This document shows positions 4,958 to 44,439 of a stretch of 64,000 bases of DNA, one piece after another (the first letter of the stretch is position 1; the number at the start of each line of letters is the position of its first letter). Under the pieces are notes generated by a model, which was not told the DNA's origin, did no database searches, and saw nothing but the letters and a program-made list of their open reading frames with translations. The position numbers and the translations under genes are program-made. The DNA comes from Berkelbacteria bacterium GW2011_GWE1_39_12 (GTDB taxonomy: Bacteria; Patescibacteriota; UBA1384; UBA12157), in NCBI GenBank assembly GCA_001029735.1, contig CP011213.1, positions 11,709-75,708 on the forward strand, written 5' to 3'.

Positions 4958-6085
4958 TTAGTCCTTTAATGGACCGCATTTCGGGTCTTCCGACCCGTGG
5001 AAAACACCAGCCAGTTCTGATCTATTTGAGTAACCAGGCGTAGCGTCGCTCAGCAATGGCCACCCATTGCCGATTCTTGCCCATATCTCGTCCCAGCTGC
5101 GAACGGCGCTCAACGGATCAAGCGCTTCGACGCTACATGAGCTAGCACCATTGGCGAACTGAAGACAAAGTTCAGGTGAAAGCCCCTGTAACATTGCGGT
5201 CAGGAAACCGGCGATCGAGACATCGCCACTACCGTTGGCACTGCCAAAGGTTTCTTCTTTGAAGGGAATACTAATGATTTCTCGTTCCAGCCAGTCATCG
5301 GAGTCTCCGATTACCGAATCTTTAGCTGTTCGCAGGTAAAGACCTTTCGTACCGAGCTTCAACATGACGGCGCCACAACCCCATTCGAGGAACTTATTCG
5401 CCATCATGCCCCAACCATGGTGACCGGTATCATACCTGGCAAAGCACGGCATAATCGACACCATTTCACCAAAACTAGGTGTAAAGATATCGACAAAGGG
5501 CAGTACCTTCCTCAGAATCTTTTCCCAGTCTTGCTTTGCCGTTTCTGAGCGAGGATCGACTTGGACCATGTCCATTGAGATTGTTTTTCCCATACTCTTG
5601 AGTCGACTCAGCATAATGACCGCGTCTCTGCCGTCATCACTATATAAAGCCTTCATGATCGGCAGATAACCGAAATGCACATGATCAATACCAGTTAGCA
5701 AGGCGTAAGGCACATCATCAGCAGTAAAAGTGTCATTGCAGCCGGGACAGTGTAGGAAAGAACGATCACCCTTCGCCGGTACAAGAACAATACTAAACGA
5801 CGTAGGATCCATAGAGTCGATGATGCAACATTCGACATTTGGTTTGTAAGCGTAGAGACCGCGAAGTTGATCGCCAAAAAGGTCTTGACCGATCTTACAA
5901 ACCAGAGTCGTGCCGATACCGATCTTCGCCGCGGCAAGTCCCGTGTTCGAGACAACACCGCCAGCCGACCAAATCGGCGGCTCAACAATCGAGAGTTTGC
6001 CGTGTCGTGGGACCTGGCCAATAATCCTCGGCGTAATATCCAAGCACGCATGCCCTAGCACGGCTAATCGCTTTTTCAAACGCAT
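4958..6085 (-). CDS. PfkB-family carbohydrate/nucleoside kinase (ribokinase-like); GC content far above the local background
   Basis: Ribokinase-like fold signatures including GSGDVSIAGFL (DTxGAGD-type motif); about 55% GC versus about 33% in flanking DNA. Confidence 0.75.
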   Translation of the reverse strand: MRLKKRLAVLGHACLDITPRIIGQVPRHGKLSIVEPPIWSAGGVVSNTGLAAAKIGIGTTLVCKIGQDLFGDQLRGLYAYKPNVECCIIDSMDPTSFSIVLVPAKGDRSFLHCPGCNDTFTADDVPYALLTGIDHVHFGYLPIMKALYSDDGRDAVIMLSRLKSMGKTISMDMVQVDPRSETAKQDWEKILRKVLPFVDIFTPSFGEMVSIMPCFARYDTGHHGWGMMANKFLEWGCGAVMLKLGTKGLYLRTAKDSVIGDSDDWLEREIISIPFKEETFGSANGSGDVSIAGFLTAMLQGLSPELCLQFANGASSCSVEALDPLSAVRSWDEIWARIGNGWPLLSDATPGYSNRSELAGVFHGSEDPKCGPLKD

Positions 6086-10371: not shown

Positions 10372-10628
10372 TTATTAAAAAGAAAACTTGGCCTGATTTA
10401 TTTCAAAAAGTATTTGACGGAGAAAAAACGTTTGATATGCGTCTGGCTGATTTTGATTGCAAAGAGGGCGATGTATTAGTACTGGAAGAATGGGACCCGG
10501 AGACTCGCGAATATACTGGACGAAAACTGGAAAAGAAAGTGACTTTTGTCTTAAAAACAAAGGGTATAACATTTTGGACAAAAGAAGAGGTAGGAAAATT
10601 TGGCTATCAAATCATCAGCTTTAAATAG
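10368..10628 (+). CDS. DUF3850/ASCH-like small protein
   Basis: 86 aa; KTFDMRLADFDCKEGDVLVLEEWD pattern of the ASCH-related DUF3850 fold. Confidence 0.45.
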   Translation: MIIKKKTWPDLFQKVFDGEKTFDMRLADFDCKEGDVLVLEEWDPETREYTGRKLEKKVTFVLKTKGITFWTKEEVGKFGYQIISFK

Positions 10629-11295
10629 CGAAAAAATAATCAAAGAACTCAAAACCTATAAAAATGAAAAGAACGTTATCGGCATGGCGCGCTTTGGCAT
10701 TGGTGGCAAAAATGTCTTAGGTGGACCTAATATTCCAACTCTTAGAAAAATGGCTAAGGATATTAAAAAGACAGTAGGAGAGAGCACTCACGAAATTGCT
10801 TTAGAACTTTGGGAATCAGGCATCCATGAAGCGAGAATTTTGGCCAGTATGATCGATGATCCTAAAAAGGTAACAGCCAAACAAATGGATAGTTGGATTA
10901 AAGATTTTGACAGCTGGGATGTCTGCGATCAAGTTTCCATGAATCTTTTCGATAGCACTACCATCGCTTTTAAAAAGGCAGCCGAGTGGTCAATGAGAAA
11001 ACCGGAATTCGAAAAACGGGCTGGATTTGCCCTGATGGCTGCTTTGGCCAATCACGACAATAAAAATAACCACAACGATGAGCTAAAAAAATTCTTACCA
11101 ATAATTCTACGAGAGGCGACGGATGAAAGAAATTTCATCCGCAAAGCGGTCAATTGGGCGCTCAGAGGAATCGGTAAAAGAAACCCAGAACTCAAAAAAG
11201 AGGCAATGAAAACTGCCGAAGAAATATTGAAGATCGATAATAAAACCGCGCAATGGATCGCCAAAGATGCGATCCGCGAACTCAAAAGCCGTTGA
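10600..11295 (+). CDS. DNA alkylation repair enzyme family (AlkC/AlkD-like HEAT-repeat glycosylase)
   Basis: LWESGIHEARILA and SWDVCDQ motifs typical of Pfam DNA_alkylation proteins. Confidence 0.7.
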   Translation: MAIKSSALNSEKIIKELKTYKNEKNVIGMARFGIGGKNVLGGPNIPTLRKMAKDIKKTVGESTHEIALELWESGIHEARILASMIDDPKKVTAKQMDSWIKDFDSWDVCDQVSMNLFDSTTIAFKKAAEWSMRKPEFEKRAGFALMAALANHDNKNNHNDELKKFLPIILREATDERNFIRKAVNWALRGIGKRNPELKKEAMKTAEEILKIDNKTAQWIAKDAIRELKSR

Positions 11296-11350: not shown

Positions 11351-11719
11351 ATGGAAGGGTTTTTAGGACAAGATAACGATGATGTGATGATTCAAGACGT
11401 TTGCGATGGTTCCTATCATCGCGTTCACTTTACAGCAGCGCTCAAAGTGGTCGGTAAAGATAGACCGCTACACGAGCAATTTGAGGAGCCAATCGGACAT
11501 GCCATCGATCGCGTCATACACTCGATCGACAACTATACCAGGCTAATGGTCACGCCTTTCGGTATAAAAGTTTGCTCAATGTGCACATGGCCGAGTGACG
11601 GCCAGAAAATTCGAGCCACTATAATACTCACGAGAGCAAAGAAGATGAGCACAAAAATGTGGGTTCGCCGCGGGGCGATGTTTAGCGAGTACTTCCAAAA
11701 AGAATCACAACCGGTTTAA
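11351..11719 (+). CDS. hypothetical protein (about 122 aa), GC-richer than the background
   Basis: GGAGG SD 5 nt before ATG at 11351 (the track ORF starts earlier at 11267 without an SD); terminator hairpin AACCGGTTtaatcgCCGGTTtttt follows. Confidence 0.5.
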   Translation: MEGFLGQDNDDVMIQDVCDGSYHRVHFTAALKVVGKDRPLHEQFEEPIGHAIDRVIHSIDNYTRLMVTPFGIKVCSMCTWPSDGQKIRATIILTRAKKMSTKMWVRRGAMFSEYFQKESQPV

Positions 11720-32035: not shown

Positions 32036-32830
32036 TTAATTGCCGCTTCCTGCGGCACCGTTACCGTTGGCGACGGCCGCGCCTGTTGCGGATCCGTCCC
32101 CGATGTTAATGACGTTGTTATTCGCGTTGTCATTAACATTCGTATTACTGTTGTTGTTAACAACGTTGGCGTCTCCGCCTTTAACGTTGTTACAAATACT
32201 GATACTGGTATTCGATACCGGCACTGCCGATACCGAGAGCAGTTGCTGACTGTTGGTCTGCCACGGCGATTGACCGCCGATCTGACCACACATTACAGGC
32301 GCAGAAGAAAAGTAGTTGTTGGTCACATTTGTCACCGGCTGTACCGGCACCTCGTGAACAACTTTGGTTTCATGAACTACTTCAGTCTTTTCGTGAATGA
32401 CTTGTGTTTCATGTTCGCGGATCACTTCGGTCGGCTTGATCTTCACGATGACCTTCCGCTTGATACGGATGACCTTGTTGTTACAGGCCTTATGATTCTT
32501 GGCCGGCTTATGGATCCTCATTACTCCGTACTTGTCAGTGAAGAGAAATGTGCTTGCCATACCGGCTTTGATGTAGTCATACTGCTCACCTGTCTGACTA
32601 AGTTGTTCTGAAATTACTTCCAGCTCAGTCTGATCAAGAACTGCAAGAGTATACTGCCCTGGTGTTGTCATTTCCCAGGTTGTCATCTCTTGTGCCTTGA
32701 CGGTGGTTGCAGGAGCTACGCTAACTTCTTGCTGCGGAACTACGCCGACGACGACTACATCCTCGGCTGAAGCCATGGATGCGATCGCCAACATGACCAA
32801 TATCCCTGTCAGAGTTACTAATCGTTTCAT
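32036..32830 (-). CDS. secreted repeat protein sharing the NNNVINIG(D/S)GSA motif with the LPXTG protein; GC-rich
   Basis: Signal peptide MKRLVTLTGILVMLAIASMASA; His/Val/Lys-rich HE(T/K)xVxHE repeats; C-terminal NNNVINIGDGSATG. Confidence 0.55.
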   Translation of the reverse strand: MKRLVTLTGILVMLAIASMASAEDVVVVGVVPQQEVSVAPATTVKAQEMTTWEMTTPGQYTLAVLDQTELEVISEQLSQTGEQYDYIKAGMASTFLFTDKYGVMRIHKPAKNHKACNNKVIRIKRKVIVKIKPTEVIREHETQVIHEKTEVVHETKVVHEVPVQPVTNVTNNYFSSAPVMCGQIGGQSPWQTNSQQLLSVSAVPVSNTSISICNNVKGGDANVVNNNSNTNVNDNANNNVINIGDGSATGAAVANGNGAAGSGN

Positions 32831-32831
32831 G

Positions 32832-33998
32832 CTACTTTACCTCCATCTCGAAGTTGATATCGTCACCGGGGCAAAGCCCCTTGGAACCGATCGATTCGAC
32901 TTCTGCGTAGATTTTTCCTTGGCTCGCGCTTGTAATCATAGCCGTGGCGGCCTCATAGCCCTTGCGGGTAAAAGTCACCTTCGCACCCTGCTTTATCCGA
33001 CCGTTTACCCTAATGGTGAAGGACGAATGGTCCAGCCCTGTAAGGATAAGGCGGTACTCACCACAGAGAACGTAAATCCTCTTTGATGATGGGGGACGAG
33101 CAACGATTGTCAGCTTGTTATCTGCAACAGCGTAACCATCAGACTTCATGTCGATCCTTGGCTTAGGTGTTTCCACTTTGGGCTGAGGCTGGACAATGGG
33201 TTTCGGTTCTGCAACGGGTGCAGGTTGAGGCTGTGCTACGGGTGTTTGCGACTGAACAATGGGTGCAGGAGCGGTCATCTGGTTCAAGGTTTGCCGCTGG
33301 GCATTCCTCATAGCCAAATAACCAGGATCCGGTAGCGCAGTCGTCGGCTGGAAAGCCGGCGAAAGCATTGAGCACCACTGCTCATCGGTGAAGTTCCAGC
33401 ATTCTTCAGGTGCACTCTGCACCAGAACCTGCTGGACCATACCGTTGGTCCGATTGGAAGTCCAGTTGAAAGGAAGGAAGACAACCGTTAGACGGTTTTT
33501 CTTATCCCGACTTGTAACTTTCCATTCAAACGCATAGCTACCAGGATCAAGATATGGAATCTCAACCTGATAACCTTTTAGTGCCTCTAGCTCGGCGAGC
33601 CAGCAAGTTGCACCATGATCGGGCGTCAGTTCGACCTTCACAACGTGTTCAACGTTGCTAAAATCGCTGTATGCTCGATACACAGGTGATTTTGCGGCTA
33701 CAGCATCTCGAAACATCGACTTGTTCATCACAAGCCGCGGGAACATGTTCGTGGATGAAAACCATGAAGTAATGGGTTGGTAGGTACGTTTGTACTCACT
33801 TCTTCCATCAGCTCCTAAGCATCTCTCGACGCTCTTTCGGCATGCATCCATTCTCGATCCCATCGAGACACCTGCGGCTGATTCCGTGAGTGTCACACCT
33901 CCGCCGACCGAAATGGCCGCATTGGCATAAACACTCTGAGTTACCGCCATGGTGGCGATAACTACTAGCAACATTGCGATAGTTAACGTGCGTCGCAT
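32832..33998 (-). CDS. secreted protein with Pro/Gln-rich linker (388 aa), GC-rich
   Basis: Signal peptide; PxQP repeats in the middle; no recognised family. Confidence 0.55.
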   Translation of the reverse strand: MRRTLTIAMLLVVIATMAVTQSVYANAAISVGGGVTLTESAAGVSMGSRMDACRKSVERCLGADGRSEYKRTYQPITSWFSSTNMFPRLVMNKSMFRDAVAAKSPVYRAYSDFSNVEHVVKVELTPDHGATCWLAELEALKGYQVEIPYLDPGSYAFEWKVTSRDKKNRLTVVFLPFNWTSNRTNGMVQQVLVQSAPEECWNFTDEQWCSMLSPAFQPTTALPDPGYLAMRNAQRQTLNQMTAPAPIVQSQTPVAQPQPAPVAEPKPIVQPQPKVETPKPRIDMKSDGYAVADNKLTIVARPPSSKRIYVLCGEYRLILTGLDHSSFTIRVNGRIKQGAKVTFTRKGYEAATAMITSASQGKIYAEVESIGSKGLCPGDDINFEMEVK

Positions 33999-36589: not shown

Positions 36590-38743
36590 TTATTTGGAAT
36601 AATCACACTCACTACACTTGATCTTATCCTTACCTGCTTTCAATAGCAACTTTCCACATTCAGGACACTTTTCACTGGTTGGCTCATTCCAAAATGCCGT
36701 TTTACACTTTGGATAGCCCGAGCAACCCCAAAAAGTTCTGCCTTTTTTAGTTCTTCGTTGAATCAATTTTTCACCACAATTAGGACATGGCACATCTGTT
36801 TCTACGGTGATTGTTTTAGTAGTTTTGCATTCCGGATATCCTTCACAGGCTAAAAACTTACCATAACGACTTTCTTTTAGAACCATATTTTTACCACATT
36901 TTGGACATTTTTCGTCGGTTGGCTCCCCTTCCGGTTTATTTTCTTCACCGGGTTTAGTGATTGGGCGCGTAAATTTGCACTCAGGGTAACCCTTACAAGC
37001 CATGAATTTACCAAAACGTCCCATTTTTATCATTAGATTTTGACCGCATTTCGGACATTTTTCGTCGGTTTCTTCTTGAAGATCGGCTTTTTTAACGCTT
37101 TCCATTTTTTCAGTTAAATTCTTGGCAAATGGGTCGTAAAACTCTTTAAGAACTGGTTGCCATTTGAGTTTTCCTTCCGCAATTTCATCTAAATTTTCTT
37201 CCATTTTAGCCGTAAAATCATAGTCGACGATTTGAGGAAAATTTTCCACTAAAATATCGCTGACGGCAATACCGATATCTTTAGGTATAAACCTACCTTC
37301 GATTTTTTCCACGTATCCCCTGTCTTGGATAGTAGATAAGGTTGGAGCGTAGGTTGAAGGTCGGCCAATCCCCCGCTTTTCGAGTTCTTTAATCAAACTT
37401 CCTTCAGAGTAACGCGGTAATGGTTCGGTAAAGTGCTGAATTTTATCTAATTTTTCCAAGCTTAATTTATCGCCTATATTAAGCTCGGGAAGAAAATTTT
37501 CCATCGCCTCATTAGTCTTGTAGAGTTTCATGAAACCGTCAAATTTAACCTTTAAGCCCTTGGCAGTAAAGATAAATTCGCCGTTCTTGATTTTTGCGGT
37601 GGTTTCCGCCACAATCGCCTCTTGCATCTGGGAAGCCATCATCTTTTTCCAGATTAATTCATAAATCTTTTGATGCTGAGCGGTTAACGGAATTTTATCT
37701 GAAGTAACGTTCATATCTGTCGGACGGATAGCTTCATGTGCTTCTTGAGCGCCTTTGGATTTGGTTTTAAAAACTCGCGGCGTTTCTAATGCGTATTTTT
37801 CGCCATATTTAGAGGTAATAACTTCTTGTGCTTGTTTTAACGCCTGGGCTGAGATATTAACAGAGTCAGTTCTCATATAGGTGATGAAACCGTCTTCATA
37901 AAGGTTTTGGGCTAACCGCATGGTCTGTTTGGCACTGTATTTGAACTTACTGCCGGCTTCCATTTGCAGAGTACTAGTGGTAAATGGCGGCGAAGGATGC
38001 TTTTTTTTATCTTCACTCTTTAAATCTGCAACTTCATAATCCCCTGTTTTCAACTGATCATCAATTTCTTTGGCCTCTTTTTCGCTTTTGATGGCCAATT
38101 TATCCAGTTTTTTGCCACTTCTCTCGGTTAAATCAGCTGTAAATTGTACCTTATTCTTACTAAGTAAAGCTTCAATAGACCAATATTCAACCGGTATAAA
38201 TTTTTGTATTTCTTTTTCGCGCTCGACAACCAGCCGCACCGCAACGGATTGAACTCTACCGGCGGACAGGCCTCTGGCCACTTTTTGCCATAAAAACGGT
38301 GAAAGTTTATAACCTACCAAACGGTCTAGGACACGACGGGCTTGCTGCGCATCAACCAGATCCATGTCGATTTCTCGAGGATGTTCAACGGCAGAAGTGA
38401 TGGCGGATTTAGTGATTTCAGTAAAAGTAATACGTTGATATGGTATTTTAGGCTTTAAGGCTTCGACTAAATGAAAAGCGATGGCCTCCCCTTCTCTATC
38501 ATAGTCAGTTGCAAGATAGACTTTGTCGGCTTTAGCCATAGCCGATTTAAGAGCTTTAATGGTTTTTTCGGCTTTTTCAGGGATTTCATAGGTTGGTTCA
38601 AAGTTTTTCTTGGTATCTACCCCAATTTTACTTGAAGGTAAATCGCGGACATGACCAAAAGAGGCCAAGACTTTATAATCTTTGCCCAAATATTTTTCGA
38701 TGGTTTTCCCCTTTGCGGGAGACTCAACTATAACTAAATTCAT
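36590..38743 (-). CDS. topA: DNA topoisomerase I with C-terminal zinc ribbons
   Basis: MNLVIVESPAKGKTIEKYLG Toprim start; catalytic Tyr region; three C4 ribbons. Confidence 0.9.
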   Translation of the reverse strand: MNLVIVESPAKGKTIEKYLGKDYKVLASFGHVRDLPSSKIGVDTKKNFEPTYEIPEKAEKTIKALKSAMAKADKVYLATDYDREGEAIAFHLVEALKPKIPYQRITFTEITKSAITSAVEHPREIDMDLVDAQQARRVLDRLVGYKLSPFLWQKVARGLSAGRVQSVAVRLVVEREKEIQKFIPVEYWSIEALLSKNKVQFTADLTERSGKKLDKLAIKSEKEAKEIDDQLKTGDYEVADLKSEDKKKHPSPPFTTSTLQMEAGSKFKYSAKQTMRLAQNLYEDGFITYMRTDSVNISAQALKQAQEVITSKYGEKYALETPRVFKTKSKGAQEAHEAIRPTDMNVTSDKIPLTAQHQKIYELIWKKMMASQMQEAIVAETTAKIKNGEFIFTAKGLKVKFDGFMKLYKTNEAMENFLPELNIGDKLSLEKLDKIQHFTEPLPRYSEGSLIKELEKRGIGRPSTYAPTLSTIQDRGYVEKIEGRFIPKDIGIAVSDILVENFPQIVDYDFTAKMEENLDEIAEGKLKWQPVLKEFYDPFAKNLTEKMESVKKADLQEETDEKCPKCGQNLMIKMGRFGKFMACKGYPECKFTRPITKPGEENKPEGEPTDEKCPKCGKNMVLKESRYGKFLACEGYPECKTTKTITVETDVPCPNCGEKLIQRRTKKGRTFWGCSGYPKCKTAFWNEPTSEKCPECGKLLLKAGKDKIKCSECDYSK

Positions 38744-39849
38744 TTTTTCTTTAATTTTCCTTTAATGACATAACAGGTTCCACCAAGATTGGAAATCATG
38801 CCTTTCATTTCTAACATAATTAGGGTGCTGTTGACAAGGGGTGCGGGTAGTTTGGACGTTCGGATTATCTCATCAACTAGATTTGGTTTCTTTAGTAAGT
38901 TTAACAGAATTTCTTCTTCGGGGGTATCGGCTAGAATCTCTTGGGCCTCTTTTTGACCCGATTTTTCGGCGATCTGTAGATCTGTTAAAATGTCGTCTGC
39001 CTCTGTAACAAGCTTGGCCCCCATTTTGAGTAATTTATTCGGGCCTTCAGAGGTTTCCGAGTAAATATGGCCTGGCACGGCGTAAACTTCCCTGTTATAT
39101 TCTAACGCCGCTTTGGCGGTAATCAGCGAACCAGAATCAACCGCTGCTTCGATTACTAGAGTCCCAAGGCTCATTCCGGCAATAATGCGGTTTCGCATGG
39201 GGAAATTTGATCTGTAAGCCGGCATCCCGATTGGAAACTCGGAAATGATCGCTCCCCCACTCTGAAGAATTTTATCGGCTAAACGAGTGTTGGAAACAGG
39301 GTAAATTTGATCTAACCCACAGCCTAAAACCCCGATAGTTCGGCCTTTTGCCTCGAGAGCGGCTTGGTGAGCTAAGGCATCGATACCTAAAGCTAGACCT
39401 GAAACGATAGTTAATTTATTTTTGGCTAATTTGTAAACCAGATCTTCGGTTAATCTTTGGCCATAGGTAGTGTATTTACGAGAACCAACAACGGCCAGAG
39501 AAACTTCGTCTTCAGGCAAAAGTTTGCCTTTTATATATAGTACGGCCGGAAGATCGGGTATTTCTTTAAGTAGCGCCGGATATTCCTTGTCGGCTAGGGT
39601 AACAACGCTAATTCCCCTCTTTTCGGCTTCTTGGAGTGCCCGATCTGGGTCGACTTTCGAAATTACCTCTTTAACGGCATTAATTTGACCTAAGTCCAAA
39701 CCGGCAGCGGCCAAATCAACCTCTTTTGCGCTCCAAACAGCAGAGATTTTCTTAAACCTCTTATATAGTTTGCCAATGGTTCTGGCACCGATTTTTTGGT
39801 GAGTTGTGAGCGCCACGTAGTACTTTTTCTCGTCCAAATTTCCCTCCAC
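38740..39849 (-). CDS. dprA: DNA processing protein DprA (Smf)
   Basis: Rossmann-like DprA core with GCGLDQIYP motif. Confidence 0.85.
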   Translation of the reverse strand: MEGNLDEKKYYVALTTHQKIGARTIGKLYKRFKKISAVWSAKEVDLAAAGLDLGQINAVKEVISKVDPDRALQEAEKRGISVVTLADKEYPALLKEIPDLPAVLYIKGKLLPEDEVSLAVVGSRKYTTYGQRLTEDLVYKLAKNKLTIVSGLALGIDALAHQAALEAKGRTIGVLGCGLDQIYPVSNTRLADKILQSGGAIISEFPIGMPAYRSNFPMRNRIIAGMSLGTLVIEAAVDSGSLITAKAALEYNREVYAVPGHIYSETSEGPNKLLKMGAKLVTEADDILTDLQIAEKSGQKEAQEILADTPEEEILLNLLKKPNLVDEIIRTSKLPAPLVNSTLIMLEMKGMISNLGGTCYVIKGKLKKK

Positions 39850-39876
39850 TTATCTATTCTAACACAACCTTTATAC

Positions 39877-39905
39877 CTTGACATTTGACCTCTTTTATGG
39901 TATAT
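39877..39905 (+). promoter_or_regulatory. consensus sigma70 promoter TTGACA-N17-TATATT
   Basis: Hexamers at 39877-39882 and 39900-39905; about 95-nt leader before ATG 40003. Confidence 0.55.
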
Positions 39906-40002
39906 TATTTAAGTTCAGTCGTATGACTGGGCTCGTTCCACAGGGTGGAATAAGGGTGTAACTCCTCACCTTACAGGGAGTATCAGTTAAGGAGGTAAGT
40001 GT

Positions 40003-40311
40003 ATGCTTACCGAGAAAAAAAGATACGATATTTTCGCCGGTCAAGGAAGGTCAGATTTGATAACCTCATTCTTCGAGAAGGGTTGTCATTATCCTTTTCA
40101 ACTGCAGATTAAGACCGCAGACACGCAAAATACTAGCGCAAATCTTGAAGTGCGGCTGGAGTCGGTAATGTGGGAAGATAATTCCCGAGCCATCTGCATA
40201 CTCCAAGGCTATCTACAAGGTAGTCATCTCTATCCATTCAATGCGAATAGCAGGCATATCAAGGCCTGCTACAACACAGTTACGCGCAGAGGCTGGATAG
40301 AAACTATCTAA
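40003..40311 (+). CDS. hypothetical protein (102 aa) in a higher-GC cassette
   Basis: AAGGAGG SD; followed by terminator AAACCCC...GGGGTTT (40328-40355). Confidence 0.5.
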   Translation: MLTEKKRYDIFAGQGRSDLITSFFEKGCHYPFQLQIKTADTQNTSANLEVRLESVMWEDNSRAICILQGYLQGSHLYPFNANSRHIKACYNTVTRRGWIETI

Positions 40312-40366
40312 CATTGATCGCAATATCAAACCCCGAGCATTCGTGCCCGGGGTTTGTCATATCTAG

Positions 40367-40395
40367 TTGACTTTTTAATAAGTTTAGCGTACTAT
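40367..40395 (+). promoter_or_regulatory. sigma70-like promoter TTGACT-N17-TACTAT(AAT)
   Basis: Hexamers at 40367-40372 and 40390-40395. Confidence 0.5.
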
Positions 40396-40426
40396 AATTG
40401 GTCGAGTAGACAGAAAGAGGGAGACA

Positions 40427-40915
40427 ATGGAACCAGTGAAATTCCCAGATTGCATTCCAAAGGTTGGCGAGATTGTTCAAGTTGGCAACAGCCGGCGGAG
40501 CCTTGAAGCAAAAGTAAAGGCAAGATGGCCATCTGCTGATGGACGAACCTACTTCGTCCAATTGGACATCGACACACAGGTGATCCTGAGCATAACGCCC
40601 GATGCCGAAGAACGCGGTATGCTCGACAAGGCGAACAATCTTGTGCCATACTGGCGTGCCCATGAGGTATTCAGCGACACAAGGGTCGAACTGAGTCGAC
40701 CGGAGCACGAAGAAATATACAAGACTCCGAGAACGGTTCTGAGCACAAGAACTTCAAACTGTTTGATGAGGATGGCTGGTCTTTCGAATCTAGAGGAGAT
40801 CGCGAATTGCAGTGAGTCATATCTCCTACAGCTTCGAAATTTCGGTCCGAAGATGCTCGAAGAGGTCAAGGAAGTCTTAGCCAGCGCAGGTCTTTCATTG
40901 CGCAGCAACGACTAA
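40427..40915 (+). CDS. standalone protein with C-terminal RNA polymerase alpha-subunit C-terminal domain (alpha-CTD)-like helix-hairpin-helix; unknown N-terminal domain
   Basis: C-terminus LSTRTSNCLMRMAGLSNLEEIANCSESYLLQLRNFGPKMLEEVKEVLASAGLSL aligns with E. coli alpha-CTD [53 protein letters not shown], including the R265/N268/C269/G296/K298 equivalents. Confidence 0.6.
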   Translation: MEPVKFPDCIPKVGEIVQVGNSRRSLEAKVKARWPSADGRTYFVQLDIDTQVILSITPDAEERGMLDKANNLVPYWRAHEVFSDTRVELSRPEHEEIYKTPRTVLSTRTSNCLMRMAGLSNLEEIANCSESYLLQLRNFGPKMLEEVKEVLASAGLSLRSND

Positions 40916-40921
40916 CCAATA

Positions 40922-40951
40922 ACCCCGATACACATAGTTCGGGGTTTTTTA
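40922..40951 (+). terminator. strong intrinsic terminator
   Basis: AACCCCGAtacacatagTCGGGGTTtttt (8-bp perfect stem plus T6). Confidence 0.7.
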
Positions 40952-40961
40952 GTACTCACCC

Positions 40962-40989
40962 CTTGACAAATCTGAAAATTATGGTATAC
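40962..40989 (+). promoter_or_regulatory. consensus sigma70 promoter TTGACA-N16-TATACT driving an ORF-less transcript
   Basis: Hexamers at 40962-40967 and 40984-40989. Confidence 0.5.
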
Positions 40990-40995
40990 TTGGGA

Positions 40996-41212
40996 GGCCT
41001 TAAAAATTGAATATCTCTCCAGGTTGTAACTGGTTGGAAGTTGATTGAAACCGAACTCTTAAATTTTGGTCAACTTCTTTCCTATTACACTTAGCCCCGG
41101 CTTTGCACTTTAAAATTAAATTGAAGCCGGTCAAAACCTTCGGGTTGGCTCAAGCTCGTAAAGGAGAGGAAAAAAAAGTTGGACCTGCTCGCAAGAGTGG
41201 GTCCTTCTTTTT
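40996..41212 (+). ncRNA. candidate structured small RNA (about 215 nt), family unknown
   Basis: No ATG in the whole unit; hairpins including C(UUCG)G at AACCttcgGGTT, CCGGCTT...AAGCCGG, GAAGTTGA...TCAACTTC; ends in GNRA-capped hairpin GGACCTGCTCgcaaGAGTGGGTCC plus U-run. Confidence 0.35.
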
Positions 41213-41934
41213 TATCGCTTAAAATCTTGATAGAGCTCGCTAAAAATATCGTCGGCTAAAGAAACATAGAATTCATCGAGATCTTTTTTACTAGGCTTAT
41301 TTTTATTGAACGTTACGAAATCGGCATCTTCAATGATAGCCAATGGAGTCTGTTCCGATCCTTCACCCATCGCTAAGACAGCTGTAACGGCTAAGCCGTC
41401 AACTATATTTACTCTTTCAAACTGTAACTTCCGACCAAAAATATCTTCTTTCCCAATATAACTTTTGAGCGGTGAAAACCCGTAAAAGCCGATAGCGACA
41501 CCGAGAACACCACATCTGAGCGGCAATGATCTGCTATCGGTAATAATGACTCCGAAATCTGTTTTATTGTATTTTTTTGATAAGTACTCATAAATTTTCT
41601 TCGCTGTGTTTTGCGGATTTTTCGGCAATAAGATATAATCACCGTTCCCATTGGATTCGTCAATTCCAGCCCCGGAAATAAATGCGTTATGTTTTATGGT
41701 AAGGAGACGATTGTTACAATTTCTTTTGGCGGAGATATGGTCCGCTTCATCTTTTATTAAGAATTCTTTGTCGAGTTCTTTTGAAGCGATACGGTTTTCC
41801 ATTAAGGAAATTATTTTTGAGGTGATAACGATGATGGAATTATCTTTAATTGTTTTTATATATTCATTAAGAAATTGATCAGTTGATAGTTGATTTGCAA
41901 GAATCTTTTTAGTTTTTATAACTTTAATTTTCAT
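41212..41934 (-). CDS. CofE-family (F420-0:gamma-glutamyl ligase-like) protein
   Basis: SGAGIDESN and VIITDS...RCGVLGVAIG...GKEDIFGRKL...LAMGEGSEQTPLAIIED match CofE signatures. Confidence 0.6.
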   Translation of the reverse strand: MKIKVIKTKKILANQLSTDQFLNEYIKTIKDNSIIVITSKIISLMENRIASKELDKEFLIKDEADHISAKRNCNNRLLTIKHNAFISGAGIDESNGNGDYILLPKNPQNTAKKIYEYLSKKYNKTDFGVIITDSRSLPLRCGVLGVAIGFYGFSPLKSYIGKEDIFGRKLQFERVNIVDGLAVTAVLAMGEGSEQTPLAIIEDADFVTFNKNKPSKKDLDEFYVSLADDIFSELYQDFKR

Positions 41935-41946
41935 GCTTTGGATCTC

Positions 41947-42492
41947 TTATCTTAAAATTTTGTTTTCTTTTACATCATAAATGGTTGATGGAGAATGCAA
42001 AGAAATTATATCAGACTTAACTACAAGATCAACCTGTTCAAGAAGTTTTGGATTAATGTCGGAGTATCTTGCCGGCGTACTCTCCCCTGCTAGGTTGGCA
42101 GACGTTGCGACAATTGGACCGGAGATTTCTAATAGACTTTGCAGCCATTTATCATCTGGCACACGAACGCCGATTTTTTCGTCCTTCAAGACGATTTCCG
42201 GAAAAGCGATGTCGTATTTATTAGCATCCGCAATAATTGTCACTTGGCCCTCTGGATATTTTTCGTACTCGGGTTTTAATAGTTCTGGAATATCTTTTTT
42301 ACTCATTAAGACCGCTGTCGGCTGAGAAAACGGACGGTTTTTGATTTCATAAAGTCGCTCAATCGCCTTTTGATTTAATCCACAGCCAATTCCATAAACA
42401 GTATCTGTCGGGAATACAAAAATGCCGCCCGATTTTAGAACTTCGGCGGCATCTTTGAGTGAACTTATATTTTCTTGTTCAACTATCTTCAT
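41947..42492 (-). CDS. tsaC: L-threonylcarbamoyladenylate synthase, YrdC/TsaC domain
   Basis: FVFPTDTVYGIGC motif; 181 aa single domain. Confidence 0.8.
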   Translation of the reverse strand: MKIVEQENISSLKDAAEVLKSGGIFVFPTDTVYGIGCGLNQKAIERLYEIKNRPFSQPTAVLMSKKDIPELLKPEYEKYPEGQVTIIADANKYDIAFPEIVLKDEKIGVRVPDDKWLQSLLEISGPIVATSANLAGESTPARYSDINPKLLEQVDLVVKSDIISLHSPSTIYDVKENKILR

Positions 42493-42501
42493 ATTAAAAG
42501 A

Positions 42502-42927
42502 CTATTTAGCTAATTCTATTCCCATGCTGCGAGCAGTACCTAAAATAATTTTTTTGGCAGCTTCCATATCGCGAGCATTCAAATCGTCCATCTTGATTTT
42601 GGCGATTTCTTCGACTTGAGCATCGGTAACTTTGCCGACTTTTTCACGATTTGGGACGCCTGAACCTTTTTCGATTCCAGCGGCTTTGCGTAATAAAACG
42701 GCGGCAGGTGGAGATTTCAAAATGAAATCAAAGGTGCGATCTTCGTAAACAGTAATTTCTACTGGAACGACAGTATCACCCATTTGAGCGGTCGCGGCGT
42801 TGAACTTTGTAACAAAATCCATGATGTTCAAACCGTGCTGACCCAAGGCTGGACCGATCGGAGGCGCCGGATTAGCCTTGCCAGCTGGTGCTTGTAACTT
42901 GATAATTGTTTTAATTTTTTTTGCCAT
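42502..42927 (-). CDS. rplK: 50S ribosomal protein L11
   Basis: [32 protein letters not shown] signature. Confidence 0.9.
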
Positions 42928-43011
42928 AATAATCCTAACTAATTACTAATCATACGAATGTACGAATCTTTATTGGTACATTTGTACCAAATTCGTAATT
43001 CGTTAGATAAT

Positions 43012-43734
43012 TTATACTTTTTTTACCTGCAGGAAGTCCAAGCTGACCGGAGTTTCGCGGCCAAACATGGAAACCAGGATTTTAACTTTACCTTTATCTT
43101 CGTCAATATCAGTGACTTTGGCTTCAAAGCCTTTTAACGGACCGTCAACGATTCTAACTAAGTCACCAGGACGGAATTCAATCTTATACTTTGGTTCTTC
43201 TACACCCATACGTTTCTTGATGCGATCAATTTCTTCCGGCATCATTGGGGTAGGTCTGACACCTAAACCGATAAAACCAGTAACGTTTGGTGTATTACGA
43301 ACGACATACCAAGAATCATCAGTAACAATCATCTCAACCATGACATAGCCAGGGAAGATTCTTTTTTCGACAGTGCGTCGTTTGCCGTTCTTAATTTCAA
43401 TTTGCTTTTCTTTTGGCACTAAAACTTGGAAAATCTTGTCTTCCATACCCAAGCTTTCGATTCTTTGTTTTAATTGATCGGAAACTTGTTCCTCATAACC
43501 GGAATAAGTATGAATTACGTACCAGCCGCGCTCGCCAGTCTGCTTTTGAGTTTTGATTTCTTCTTCGTCAGCTTCGGCTTGCTTTTCGGCTTTATCTTTT
43601 GCTTCTGGTTTATTCTCTTTTACTTCATCGACATTTTCCAATTCGCCGCCAGTTGCCTCTTCTAATTCAGCCACTTCGTCAGGGGTTTCTTTTTCAGTTT
43701 CTTTTGTTTGATCTACTTGCTCGTCTTTAGACAT
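43012..43734 (-). CDS. nusG: transcription termination/antitermination factor NusG with about 68-aa acidic N-terminal extension
   Basis: NGN domain GWYVIHTYSGYE...; KOW domain FRPGDLVRIVDGPLKGFEAKV; SD before ATG 43734. Confidence 0.9.
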   Translation of the reverse strand: MSKDEQVDQTKETEKETPDEVAELEEATGGELENVDEVKENKPEAKDKAEKQAEADEEEIKTQKQTGERGWYVIHTYSGYEEQVSDQLKQRIESLGMEDKIFQVLVPKEKQIEIKNGKRRTVEKRIFPGYVMVEMIVTDDSWYVVRNTPNVTGFIGLGVRPTPMMPEEIDRIKKRMGVEEPKYKIEFRPGDLVRIVDGPLKGFEAKVTDIDEDKGKVKILVSMFGRETPVSLDFLQVKKV

Positions 43735-43741
43735 TTTTTTC

Positions 43742-43933
43742 TCACTTTCCTTGTATTAACATTTGGACTAAGGTAAACAACCCAAAATCAACGGCTGCGA
43801 TGATTGCCATAGCAATCGCGGTTGATATCACAACAATGATTGTATGCGATGTTACTTCTTTGCGACTTGGCCAAACAACTTTTTTAAACTCTCCGTATGA
43901 TCCGATGAAGAATTTTTTAATTGCGTTGATCAT
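43742..43933 (-). CDS. secE: preprotein translocase subunit SecE
   Basis: 63 aa, single C-terminal TM; gene order secE-nusG-rplK. Confidence 0.8.
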   Translation of the reverse strand: MINAIKKFFIGSYGEFKKVVWPSRKEVTSHTIIVVISTAIAMAIIAAVDFGLFTLVQMLIQGK

Positions 43934-43970
43934 GGACTTTCCAATCTTTTGTTAATTAGGCGATAAGTTT

Positions 43971-44249
43971 TTAATTGATTCCTGTAATTTTAATTTCGGT
44001 ATAATTTTGGCGATGACCGTTAGTGCGGCTGTATCGCTTCTTTGGGTGTTGTTTAAAAACAACGATTTTATCTCGTTTTCCCTCGCTGATAATTTCAGCG
44101 GCAACCTTTTTACCGTTCAGCAAATCATCAAGCTCTAAGTTCTTTCCGTCAGCTGACGGATCGCTTTCGATTTTTTCTACTTTAATTTTGTCACCTACGA
44201 CAACTTTGTACTGTTTGCCGCCGGTTTTAATAACTGCGATGTCGCTCAT
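43971..44249 (-). CDS. rplU: 50S ribosomal protein L21 (start at MSDIAVIKTGGKQYKV; the track ORF extends 13 codons further upstream without an SD)
   Basis: AVIKTGGKQYKV and GHRQNYTEIKITGI signatures; AAAGGA SD before ATG 44249. Confidence 0.8.
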   Translation of the reverse strand: MSDIAVIKTGGKQYKVVVGDKIKVEKIESDPSADGKNLELDDLLNGKKVAAEIISEGKRDKIVVFKQHPKKRYSRTNGHRQNYTEIKITGIN

Positions 44250-44439
44250 AGGGTAGTCCTTTATATCTATACTTATCTTACCCTCCATCGCTTTTACTGT
44301 AAAACCGACTACGTCGTGTACTTACAGTGCAAGCTCTTGGCGGGTGAAATTGTTTTTTCAACAATTTCAAAAAATCCCCGAGGGGACTGTTGCATACTCA
44401 TTATATGATTAACAAGTCCCATTGTCAAGCCCTTTATTG

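Follow-up and report, generated by a model that had tools for sequence, protein, structure and literature searches.

Phage morons are autonomous units, each made of a promoter, an open reading frame (ORF) and a terminator, that are inserted between conserved genes. Genomes of the candidate phyla radiation (CPR; Patescibacteria) are tiny, and to our knowledge almost no regulators are known experimentally in this group. We analyzed a stretch of 64,000 nucleotides (nt) from the groundwater genome of Berkelbacteria bacterium GW2011_GWE1_39_12 (contig CP011213.1; the whole stretch is hereafter called the window), and compared the gap between dprA and a cofE-like gene (39850-41211; the interval) with the same gap in related genomes. 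It is likely that this gap is a variable slot beside a conserved ancestral small RNA, and that the slot has been filled stepwise with autonomous one-gene units. The main product of the analysis is an uncatalogued, covariation-supported small RNA, and the second is a free-standing protein with a domain like the C-terminal domain of the RNA polymerase alpha subunit (alpha-CTD). This reading draws on the anatomy of the units, on synteny with the presence and absence of each unit, on the RNA fold with its covariation, on alpha-CTD homology and on the selection regime.

The original prediction had placed three transcription units between dprA and the CofE-like gene, and both the coordinates and the Pfam matches of the flanks bear this out. 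As it had also said, the units hold a 102-amino-acid (aa) protein (ORF102), an alpha-CTD-like protein (ORF162; Pfam RNA_pol_A_CTD at aa 105-152, E=2.4e-10, 40.4 bits versus a cutoff of 23.8) and an RNA without a conserved ORF (minimum free energy, -73 kcal/mol; z=-4.7 versus shuffles). The features are as follows, with L numbers as our handles for loci in other assemblies.

38740-39849, minus strand: dprA, the left conserved flank (Pfam DNA_processg_A, 9.7e-80, and DprA_WH).
39878-39906, plus strand: promoter P1, TTGACA, 17-nt spacer, TG-extended TATATT, 11/12; kept in L010 and L008.
39913-40002, plus strand: structured 5' leader of ORF102, about 90 nt, with a 5'-terminal hairpin and AAGGAGGU as the ribosome-binding site (RBS).
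40003-40311, plus strand: ORF102, an orphan small cytoplasmic protein.
40327-40356, plus strand: terminator-like hairpin T1, -18.8 kcal/mol, with a weak U-tract; kept in L010 and L008.
40367-40395, plus strand: promoter P2, TTGACT, 17-nt spacer, TACTAT, 9/12.
40427-40915, plus strand: ORF162, with a beta-rich N-domain (about aa 4-82) joined by a linker to an alpha-CTD-like helix-hairpin-helix (aa 104-160).
40918-40955, plus strand: intrinsic terminator T2 (hairpin 40918-40949), a AACCCCGA...TCGGGGTT stem followed by U6; -13 kcal/mol.
40963-40990, plus strand: promoter P3 of the small RNA, TTGACA, 16-nt spacer, TG-extended TATACT, 11/12; almost the same in L008.
40997-41211, plus strand: structured small RNA, about 215 nt, identified by fold, homologues and covariance model.
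41181-41213, bidirectional: intrinsic terminator T3 (hairpin 41181-41204, -24.4 kcal/mol), with a 5' A-tract and a 3' U-tract.
41212-41934, minus strand: cofE-like gamma-glutamyl ligase gene, the right conserved flank (Pfam F420_ligase, 8.4e-35, and synteny).

Relatives were gathered through CofE homologues as anchors together with their contigs, through the single ORF162 homologue and through one metagenome scan with an RNA pattern; a contig scan with DprA gave one uninformative locus (47% identity). In related Berkelbacteria, the flanking strings ileS-ftsW-L21-secE-nusG-L11-tsaC-cofE and dprA-topA-recR-x-cysS are kept, and the content of the cofE-dprA gap varies from genome to genome while the flanks stay constant. 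The gap contents were as follows, with percentages giving DprA identity to the window.

Window: ORF102, ORF162, RNA.
L008 (85%): ORF107, ORF164, RNA; the contig end falls inside the RNA.
L010 and L011 (79%): promoter, leader, ORF100, T1, promoter, RNA; without ORF162.
L022: a 186-aa lipoprotein-like ORF, then the RNA adjoining cofE.
L014 and L015 (58%): a small Ion_trans_2 gene, a 198-aa ORF (GC content at third codon positions [GC3], 0.77), RNA, and two more genes.
L016 (65%): dprA start and RNA promoter separated by about 40 nt without a gene; NlpC/P60 past the RNA.
L025 (64%): dprA start and RNA promoter separated by about 30 nt without a gene; NlpC/P60 past the RNA.

The DprA identity tree takes the form ((window, L008 85%), L010 79%), then the rest at 57-66%. 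Nine distinct sequences homologous to the RNA were recovered. No relative that has kept the locus lacks the RNA, which is more conserved than its flanking core genes (identity between the window and L010 is 87% for the RNA, 74% for dprA and 69% for cofE). Thus, the RNA is core for this clade. The ORF102 family is confined to the three closest genomes (window, L008 and L010), and ORF162 to two (window and L008). Besides, the slot genes of different lineages showed no relationship when compared with ORF102, with ORF162 and with one another. In more distant CofE neighborhoods (L017, L018, L030 and L031), synteny is lost and no RNA was seen. Universal and syntenic presence of the cassette in relatives, the pattern that the original prediction had set against its own view, was found for the RNA alone, and the protein genes stay accessory.

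The ancestral occupant of the gap would have been a gene of about 180-260 nt for a structured RNA, with a strong promoter and a terminator at its end, lying head to head with dprA where the slot is empty. In different lineages, self-contained GC-rich units (promoter, leader, ORF and terminator) would have entered the stretch between dprA and the RNA. In that of the window, an ORF102-family gene would have come first, in the common ancestor with L008 and L010, and ORF162 second, in the common ancestor with L008. Since their gain, the two protein genes would have descended vertically, ORF162 under purifying selection and ORF102 evolving very fast. Acquisition might have occurred by recombination between the conserved flanks, e.g., after natural transformation, without a dedicated mobile element. 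It is also conceivable that each insertion took over the upstream RNA promoter and brought a new one for the RNA. Promoter P1 lies beside dprA at the position held by the RNA promoter in the empty-slot genomes (L016 and L025), and it equals the L025 RNA promoter at 26/30 positions (read by eye); the -35 region of P2 (TTGACTTTT), moreover, resembles the L010 RNA promoter. The takeover stays a hint, because all of these promoters are near consensus.

Some further details of the related loci were observed. In L010-type genomes, tsaC and cofE are separated by a further gene without annotation (189-196 aa; L010 2744-3313; L011 1146-1736), and hence a second junction of the conserved string varies too. 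The 265-aa Ion_trans_2 call of L014 (10891-11688) seems too long, a start near 11371 (about 105 aa) being likely, and it overlaps the opposite-strand 198-aa ORF (10612-11205, GC3 0.77), an ORF with a consensus promoter of its own. In L008, a 28-nt palindrome (ATTCATATATTCTTACGAATATATGAAT) and an additional terminator-like hairpin, neither of them in the window, lie downstream of the ORF107 terminator and ahead of the ORF164 promoter (1505-1590). In L016 (7290-7390), a unit of about 35 nt (GGAATTTCAGTACTCCGAAATATACGAAGAAAC) is present in three tandem copies directly 3' of the small RNA terminator.

We derived the architecture of the RNA from single-sequence folds, RNAalifold and a covariance model (R1) of the 3' domain. 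A 5' single-stranded segment and a long hairpin of varying length (helix P2) are followed by a conserved 3' domain (41071-41211), a three-way junction of helices P3', P3 and P4 that is closed by a CU-rich/AG-rich helix (P1) and continues into the AAAGGAGAGGAAAA tract and the terminator. Helix P3' is 7 bp long. Helix P3, of 8 bp, ends in a conserved A/U-rich apex (UUGyACwUUAAA...UUGArG), and P4 consists of 4-5 bp capped by a tetraloop that differs in nearly every homologue (UUCG, GCAA, CUCG, UUUU, UUAC and GAAA). An invariant AAAGGrGAGGAAAA tract precedes the terminator. All homologues with their 5' end on the contig have TTGACA/T, a 16-17-nt spacer and a TG-extended -10 (TGnTAyAaT), and all those with their 3' end on the contig have an intrinsic terminator bordered by A- and U-tracts.

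R1 matches scored 118-145 bits, one to each locus, and no further copy was found in the window; the reverse-strand matches of R1 fall on terminators. In a pair test over the nine sequences and 36 pairs, counted on an alignment fitted to the model itself, 93.5% of cells were paired versus 44-64% in slid controls. Ten pairs, located in P3', P3, P4 and the terminator, were changed on both sides, with helix P1 varying on one side only, and 0 of 500 shuffles reached the observed score. Rfam 15 (4227 families) yielded no gathering-threshold match in the window, L010, L014, L016 or L025, and at E<=10 the window and eight homologue-bearing loci gave only spurious miRNA- or terminator-type matches; ARAGORN detected no tRNA or tmRNA. 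A 39-codon TTG ORF (41103-41222) in the window is interrupted or startless in L014 and L016, and no start codon after the purine tract is conserved among the homologues. Since the next downstream gene is usually convergent, the RNA is not a leader. We read the third unit as a stand-alone structured small RNA, a candidate new family and the presumable ancestral resident of the locus. A first search pattern (TTAAA...AAAGGRGAGGAAAA) matched just ordinary RBSs in viral contigs, and the pattern was tightened for the metagenome scan.

We infer from the fold that the RNA may be a trans-acting regulatory or protein-binding RNA, in which a Shine-Dalgarno (SD)-like purine tract would be alternately exposed and paired with the CU-rich strand. 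The literature that we consulted contained nothing on CPR small RNAs or Berkelbacteria alpha-CTD paralogues. A bolder proposal, which we consider distinctly unlikely, would make the RNA a new class of abundant riboregulator or ribonucleoprotein scaffold, confined to one CPR lineage, whose invariant, CU-toggled SD mimic (AAAGGAGAGGAAAA) titrates, say, ribosomal anti-SD ends or a GGA/purine-binding protein; the promoter-proximal flank would then be a preferred integrase-free landing site for cassettes, and the free alpha-CTD of one cassette would retarget or compete with RNA polymerase at A/T-rich DNA upstream of promoters.

As for ORF162, its N-terminal 100 aa matched no Pfam family at E<=1, and the RNA_pol_L/RNA_pol_A_bac domain is absent. 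Because it has no alpha N-terminal domain, ORF162 cannot be an RNA polymerase subunit. Residues 104-162 align with PDB alpha-CTD chains (E=1.5e-9; 42 PDB alpha chains match). In the alignment, R108, N111, C112, G140 and K142 are identical to the Bacillus subtilis alpha-CTD, while the S299 position is occupied by M143. We take these five residues to correspond to the DNA contacts R265, N268, C269, G296 and K298 of the Escherichia coli "265 determinant". AlphaFold2 (AF2) modeled the CTD helices with a predicted local distance difference test score (pLDDT) of 72-85 and the beta-rich N-domain with <55, too poor for a fold search.

A word search over 5.8 billion proteins returned ORF162 itself and one full-length homologue (P0002, 73-77% identity). 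An exhaustive HMMER search of a 1.84-billion-protein library gave 937 matches, nearly all to the C-terminal 55-60 residues, and many of these CTD matches lie in proteins other than RpoA that carry 2-11 alpha-CTD-like repeats in tandem; the combination of N-domain and CTD was found in none of the 150 matches listed. One protein, P0238, matches the N-domain only (aa 4-78, E=1e-8). It is encoded by a free-standing 100-aa gene in another low-GC contig and, having its own TTGACT-17-TGTGATATAAT promoter, a terminator and 51% GC, is a self-contained unit of ORF162's kind. Three of the repeat proteins (P0124, P0125 and P0128) are about 800-1000 aa long with 7-11 tandem alpha-CTD-like repeats and appear to form an uncharacterized repeat family.

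Between the window and L008, ORF162 has a nonsynonymous divergence (dN) of 0.139 and a synonymous divergence (dS) of 1.49 (dN/dS, about 0.09), and dprA has a dN of 0.113 and a dS of 1.38. That the dS equals that of dprA indicates that ORF162 has been inherited vertically since the ancestor of the window and L008, with no recent transfer. The rates show purifying selection on ORF162. The probable role of the protein is that of a free binder of A/T-tract (UP-element-like) DNA or of a decoy for alpha-CTD partners, with the N-domain giving specificity.

ORF102 found only itself among 5.8 billion proteins and had no Pfam, PHROG, PADLOC or PDB match; a profile of its family found nothing in PDB at E<=10. 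Its positional homologues, ORF100 (L010) and ORF107 (L008), share 22-30% identity, a like length and a strong RBS, as well as a scattered motif ending in C-terminal T-x-T-R-x-G-W-I. The family has a dN of 0.62-0.81, roughly sixfold the dprA value for the same splits, and the AlphaFold model of ORF102 (pLDDT 41) is unusable. The promoter, 5'-terminal leader hairpin, RBS and T1 of the unit are kept at the DNA level in L010 and L008, and the leader hairpin shows compensatory changes across the three genomes. In the leader (window 39950-39985; L010 4815-4850, minus strand) there is also a common AAGGGUGUAACUCCkCACCUUA..GGrGU element, absent from L008. This element, for which no Rfam family match was found, can be folded in prediction into an H-type pseudoknot just upstream of the RBS.

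The signals that bound the units proved less uniform than the original prediction had described them. Of its near-perfect promoters with 16-17-bp spacing, P1 and P3 (11/12 each) stand, while P2 reaches 9/12 only. Its matched strong terminators stand in so far as T1 and T2 have a common AACCCCGA 5' arm and CGGGGTT(T) 3' arm and T2 and T3 are canonical hairpins with U-tracts; T1 has a strong stem and a poor U-tract (UUUGUCAUAUCU). By sequence, then, the units have the sigma-70 promoters and intrinsic terminators expected of them, more weakly at T1, and a generic terminator scan picked up T3 alone of the three. Because T1 is without a good U-tract, some read-through into the second unit is possible. 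The cofE-like gene is convergent and its stop codon overlaps with the U-tract of T3, which makes T3 a terminator common to both strands.

Regarding base composition, the window has 39.2% GC, not the roughly 33% that had been given as background. The interval, with 44.7%, does lie above it, but only the ORF162 unit stands out: ORF162 is the sole compositional outlier of the interval (gene GC, 49.9%; GC3, 0.54; z=+2.5), and the RNA unit (39.8%) equals background. Across lineages, every slot gene is GC-richer than its flanks, with GC3 of 0.44-0.77 versus 0.26-0.44 in flanking genes. Promoter sites of at least 11/12 number 8 in the window versus 2.0 +/- 1.4 expected; a 12/12 promoter at 44428 stands ahead of the L21 operon, and further near-consensus sites precede other genes. 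Near-consensus promoters are a habit of this genome and not peculiar to the interval, so promoter strength is no sign of foreign origin, and the earlier use of it as a mark of accessory DNA turned out to be weak.

The reported lack of an integrase or repeat flanks was confirmed by ORF and repeat inspection. No integrase or transposase ORF was found in 37000-44000 and no flanking direct or inverted repeats were found; the only repeats at the interval are promoter and terminator pieces. PHROG gave no significant match for the interval proteins, viral-contig scans for the RNA pattern and ORF162 were negative, and GenBank phages gave only three generic alpha-CTD matches to ORF162, in unannotated contigs. 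PADLOC at E<=0.1 returned nothing for ORF102, ORF162 or the ORF102 homologues. Of the accessory or mobile-derived module originally proposed, the accessory part holds for ORF102 and ORF162, which are lineage-restricted, and not for the RNA, which is core; a mobile element is disfavored, with no machinery found and a dS of ORF162 like that of dprA.

These results bear on other explanations of the locus. Insertion of the whole 1.36 kb between dprA and cofE as a single accessory or mobile-derived module would agree with the three compact self-contained units, with the raised GC and with two proteins that are orphans or near-orphans. We consider it highly improbable, given that the RNA is at the locus in all nine relatives, including ones without both proteins (the RNA-only loci L016 and L025 contradict a single module), that its GC is that of the background, that the phylogenetic distributions of the three units are different and nested, that a search for integrases, flanking repeats and phage or PHROG matches found none, and that ORF162 has the same dS as dprA. 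The three units might instead be one functional system, either a small RNA regulator with an alpha-CTD-like DNA/RNA binder and a fast-evolving partner or a toxin-antitoxin- or defense-like trio. They are tightly packed and kept together in two genomes at a dS of about 1.4-1.5, all inserted genes lie directly upstream of the RNA in the same orientation, and the very fast evolution of ORF102 recalls conflict genes. Such a system is nevertheless unlikely: in at least five lineages the RNA is present and both proteins are absent, members of the ORF102 family are found where ORF162 is missing, other lineages fill the slot with genes related to neither protein, PADLOC gave no matches and every unit has its own promoter and terminator. 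A candidate 8-bp pairing of the RNA (41086-41098) with the ORF102 RBS was rejected as being at chance level and not conserved in L010.

Two further explanations concern the third unit. CPR RNAs are often divergent, and the strong promoter, the high conservation and a size typical of the 6S class would suit a very divergent known housekeeping or regulatory RNA (6S, signal recognition particle [SRP] RNA or a riboswitch-like leader) that escapes the Rfam models in CPR. However, no family was found even at E<=1 on eight homologues save trivial terminator-type matches, the fold is a hairpin with a three-way junction and not a rod with a central bubble, the P4 loop is variable, unlike the conserved GNRA loop of SRP RNA, and the convergent downstream gene in most loci speaks against a leader; we regard this explanation as very unlikely. 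The other, that the third unit is no functional RNA but the mRNA of a tiny protein or a shared terminator region of the cofE operon, could appeal to the 39-codon TTG ORF and to the RBS-like purine tract, whose motif matched real RBSs in viral contigs. It is hardly credible beside an ORF that is interrupted or startless in L014 and L016, compensatory stem substitutions, the lack of a conserved start after the purine tract and a dedicated consensus promoter in every homologue that has the promoter region on the contig.

Several observations count against the filling of a variable slot beside an ancestral RNA, or against parts of this account. The homologue set is only nine, comes from an exact-pattern scan and is biased toward conserved motifs. 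Helix P1 (CU-rich strand and purine tract) shows U-G to C-G changes only, and in several minimum-energy folds the partner of the CU-rich strand is instead a purine-rich strand in the P2 base. Transcription, start sites and terminator efficiency are all predictions, and, as judged from its weak U-tract, T1 may leave ORF102 and ORF162 partly cotranscribed. The order of gain and loss comes from parsimony on a six-taxon dprA identity tree, and L010 may instead have lost ORF162, and deeper lineages the ORF102 family. Finally, the GC3 of ORF162 is still high despite a dS of about 1.5, which could reflect selection instead of foreign origin. As regards the alternative pairing of the CU-rich strand, the two subgroups of the RNA differ in it (GG/CC to AG/CU), and the P1/P2-base part is either a switch or simply an ambiguous fold.

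In the wider setting, the minus-strand order is topA (36590-38743), dprA (38740-39849), the interval, the cofE-like gene (41212-41934), tsaC/Sua5, L11, nusG, secE and L21, the cofE-like gene closing the L21-secE-nusG-L11-tsaC-cofE string. Proteins of the window recur without a changed residue on Rifle-type groundwater metagenome contigs. The likely true start of dprA is a TTG at 39837, giving 365 aa as in gene calls of other assemblies. The gene topA is one 717-aa ORF in the window and is called as 563 plus 161 aa in one ENA assembly of the same strain (L001 4115-6317), probably owing to a frameshift or an assembly difference. Elsewhere in the window, a pair of neighboring orphan ORFs without a Pfam match (264 and 388 aa; 32036-33998, minus strand) has 49-51% GC and GC3 z-scores of >2.2 and sits behind a TG-extended TTGACA-17-TATATT promoter at 34241-34213; the pair looks like a further GC-rich accessory islet in the style of the dprA-cofE slot units. 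A PfkB-family sugar kinase gene (4958-6085, minus strand) is likewise of atypical composition (GC 50%, z=+2.3), and its comparison with the 388-aa ORF (32832-33998) showed that these two GC-rich ORFs are not paralogous.

Taken together, the RNA, predicted to be strongly promoted, supported by covariation and uncatalogued, is a concrete candidate for riboregulation in CPR, and the locus shows streamlined genomes gaining self-sufficient one-gene units between conserved operons without recognizable mobile machinery. ORF162, a free alpha-CTD that appears to keep most of the residues for minor-groove DNA contact, would be a plausible new type of small transcription modulator. The findings are modest, a useful addition under which current views stand.

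The slot units have the same anatomy as phage morons (one ORF, a sigma-70 promoter, a terminator, atypical composition and conserved neighbors), whereas the slot lies in a chromosomal core-gene region with no phage genes nearby and no PHROG or viral-contig matches. Like stand-alone bacterial small RNAs with Rho-independent terminators, the RNA has its own promoter, a structured body, a purine-rich single-stranded tract, a terminator with a U-tail and conservation in its clade; it differs from them in matching none of 4227 Rfam families, in its larger size and in a more elaborate fold, a three-way junction with invariant loops. ORF162 resembles the alpha-CTD of RpoA (PF03118; PDB 1z3e_B and 1lb2_B) over aa 104-160 (E=1.5e-9). 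In contrast to RpoA, it has only 162 aa, is without the alpha N-terminal dimerization and assembly domain, carries Met at the S299 equivalent and has its CTD fused to an unrelated beta-rich N-domain that also stands alone, as in P0238. The best non-self matches of its CTD (E values of 1e-31 to 1e-9) are non-RpoA alpha-CTD repeat proteins (P0124 with 11 repeats, P0127, P0131, P0179 and P0245), which differ from ORF162 in being built as repeat arrays or in having other N-terminal parts.

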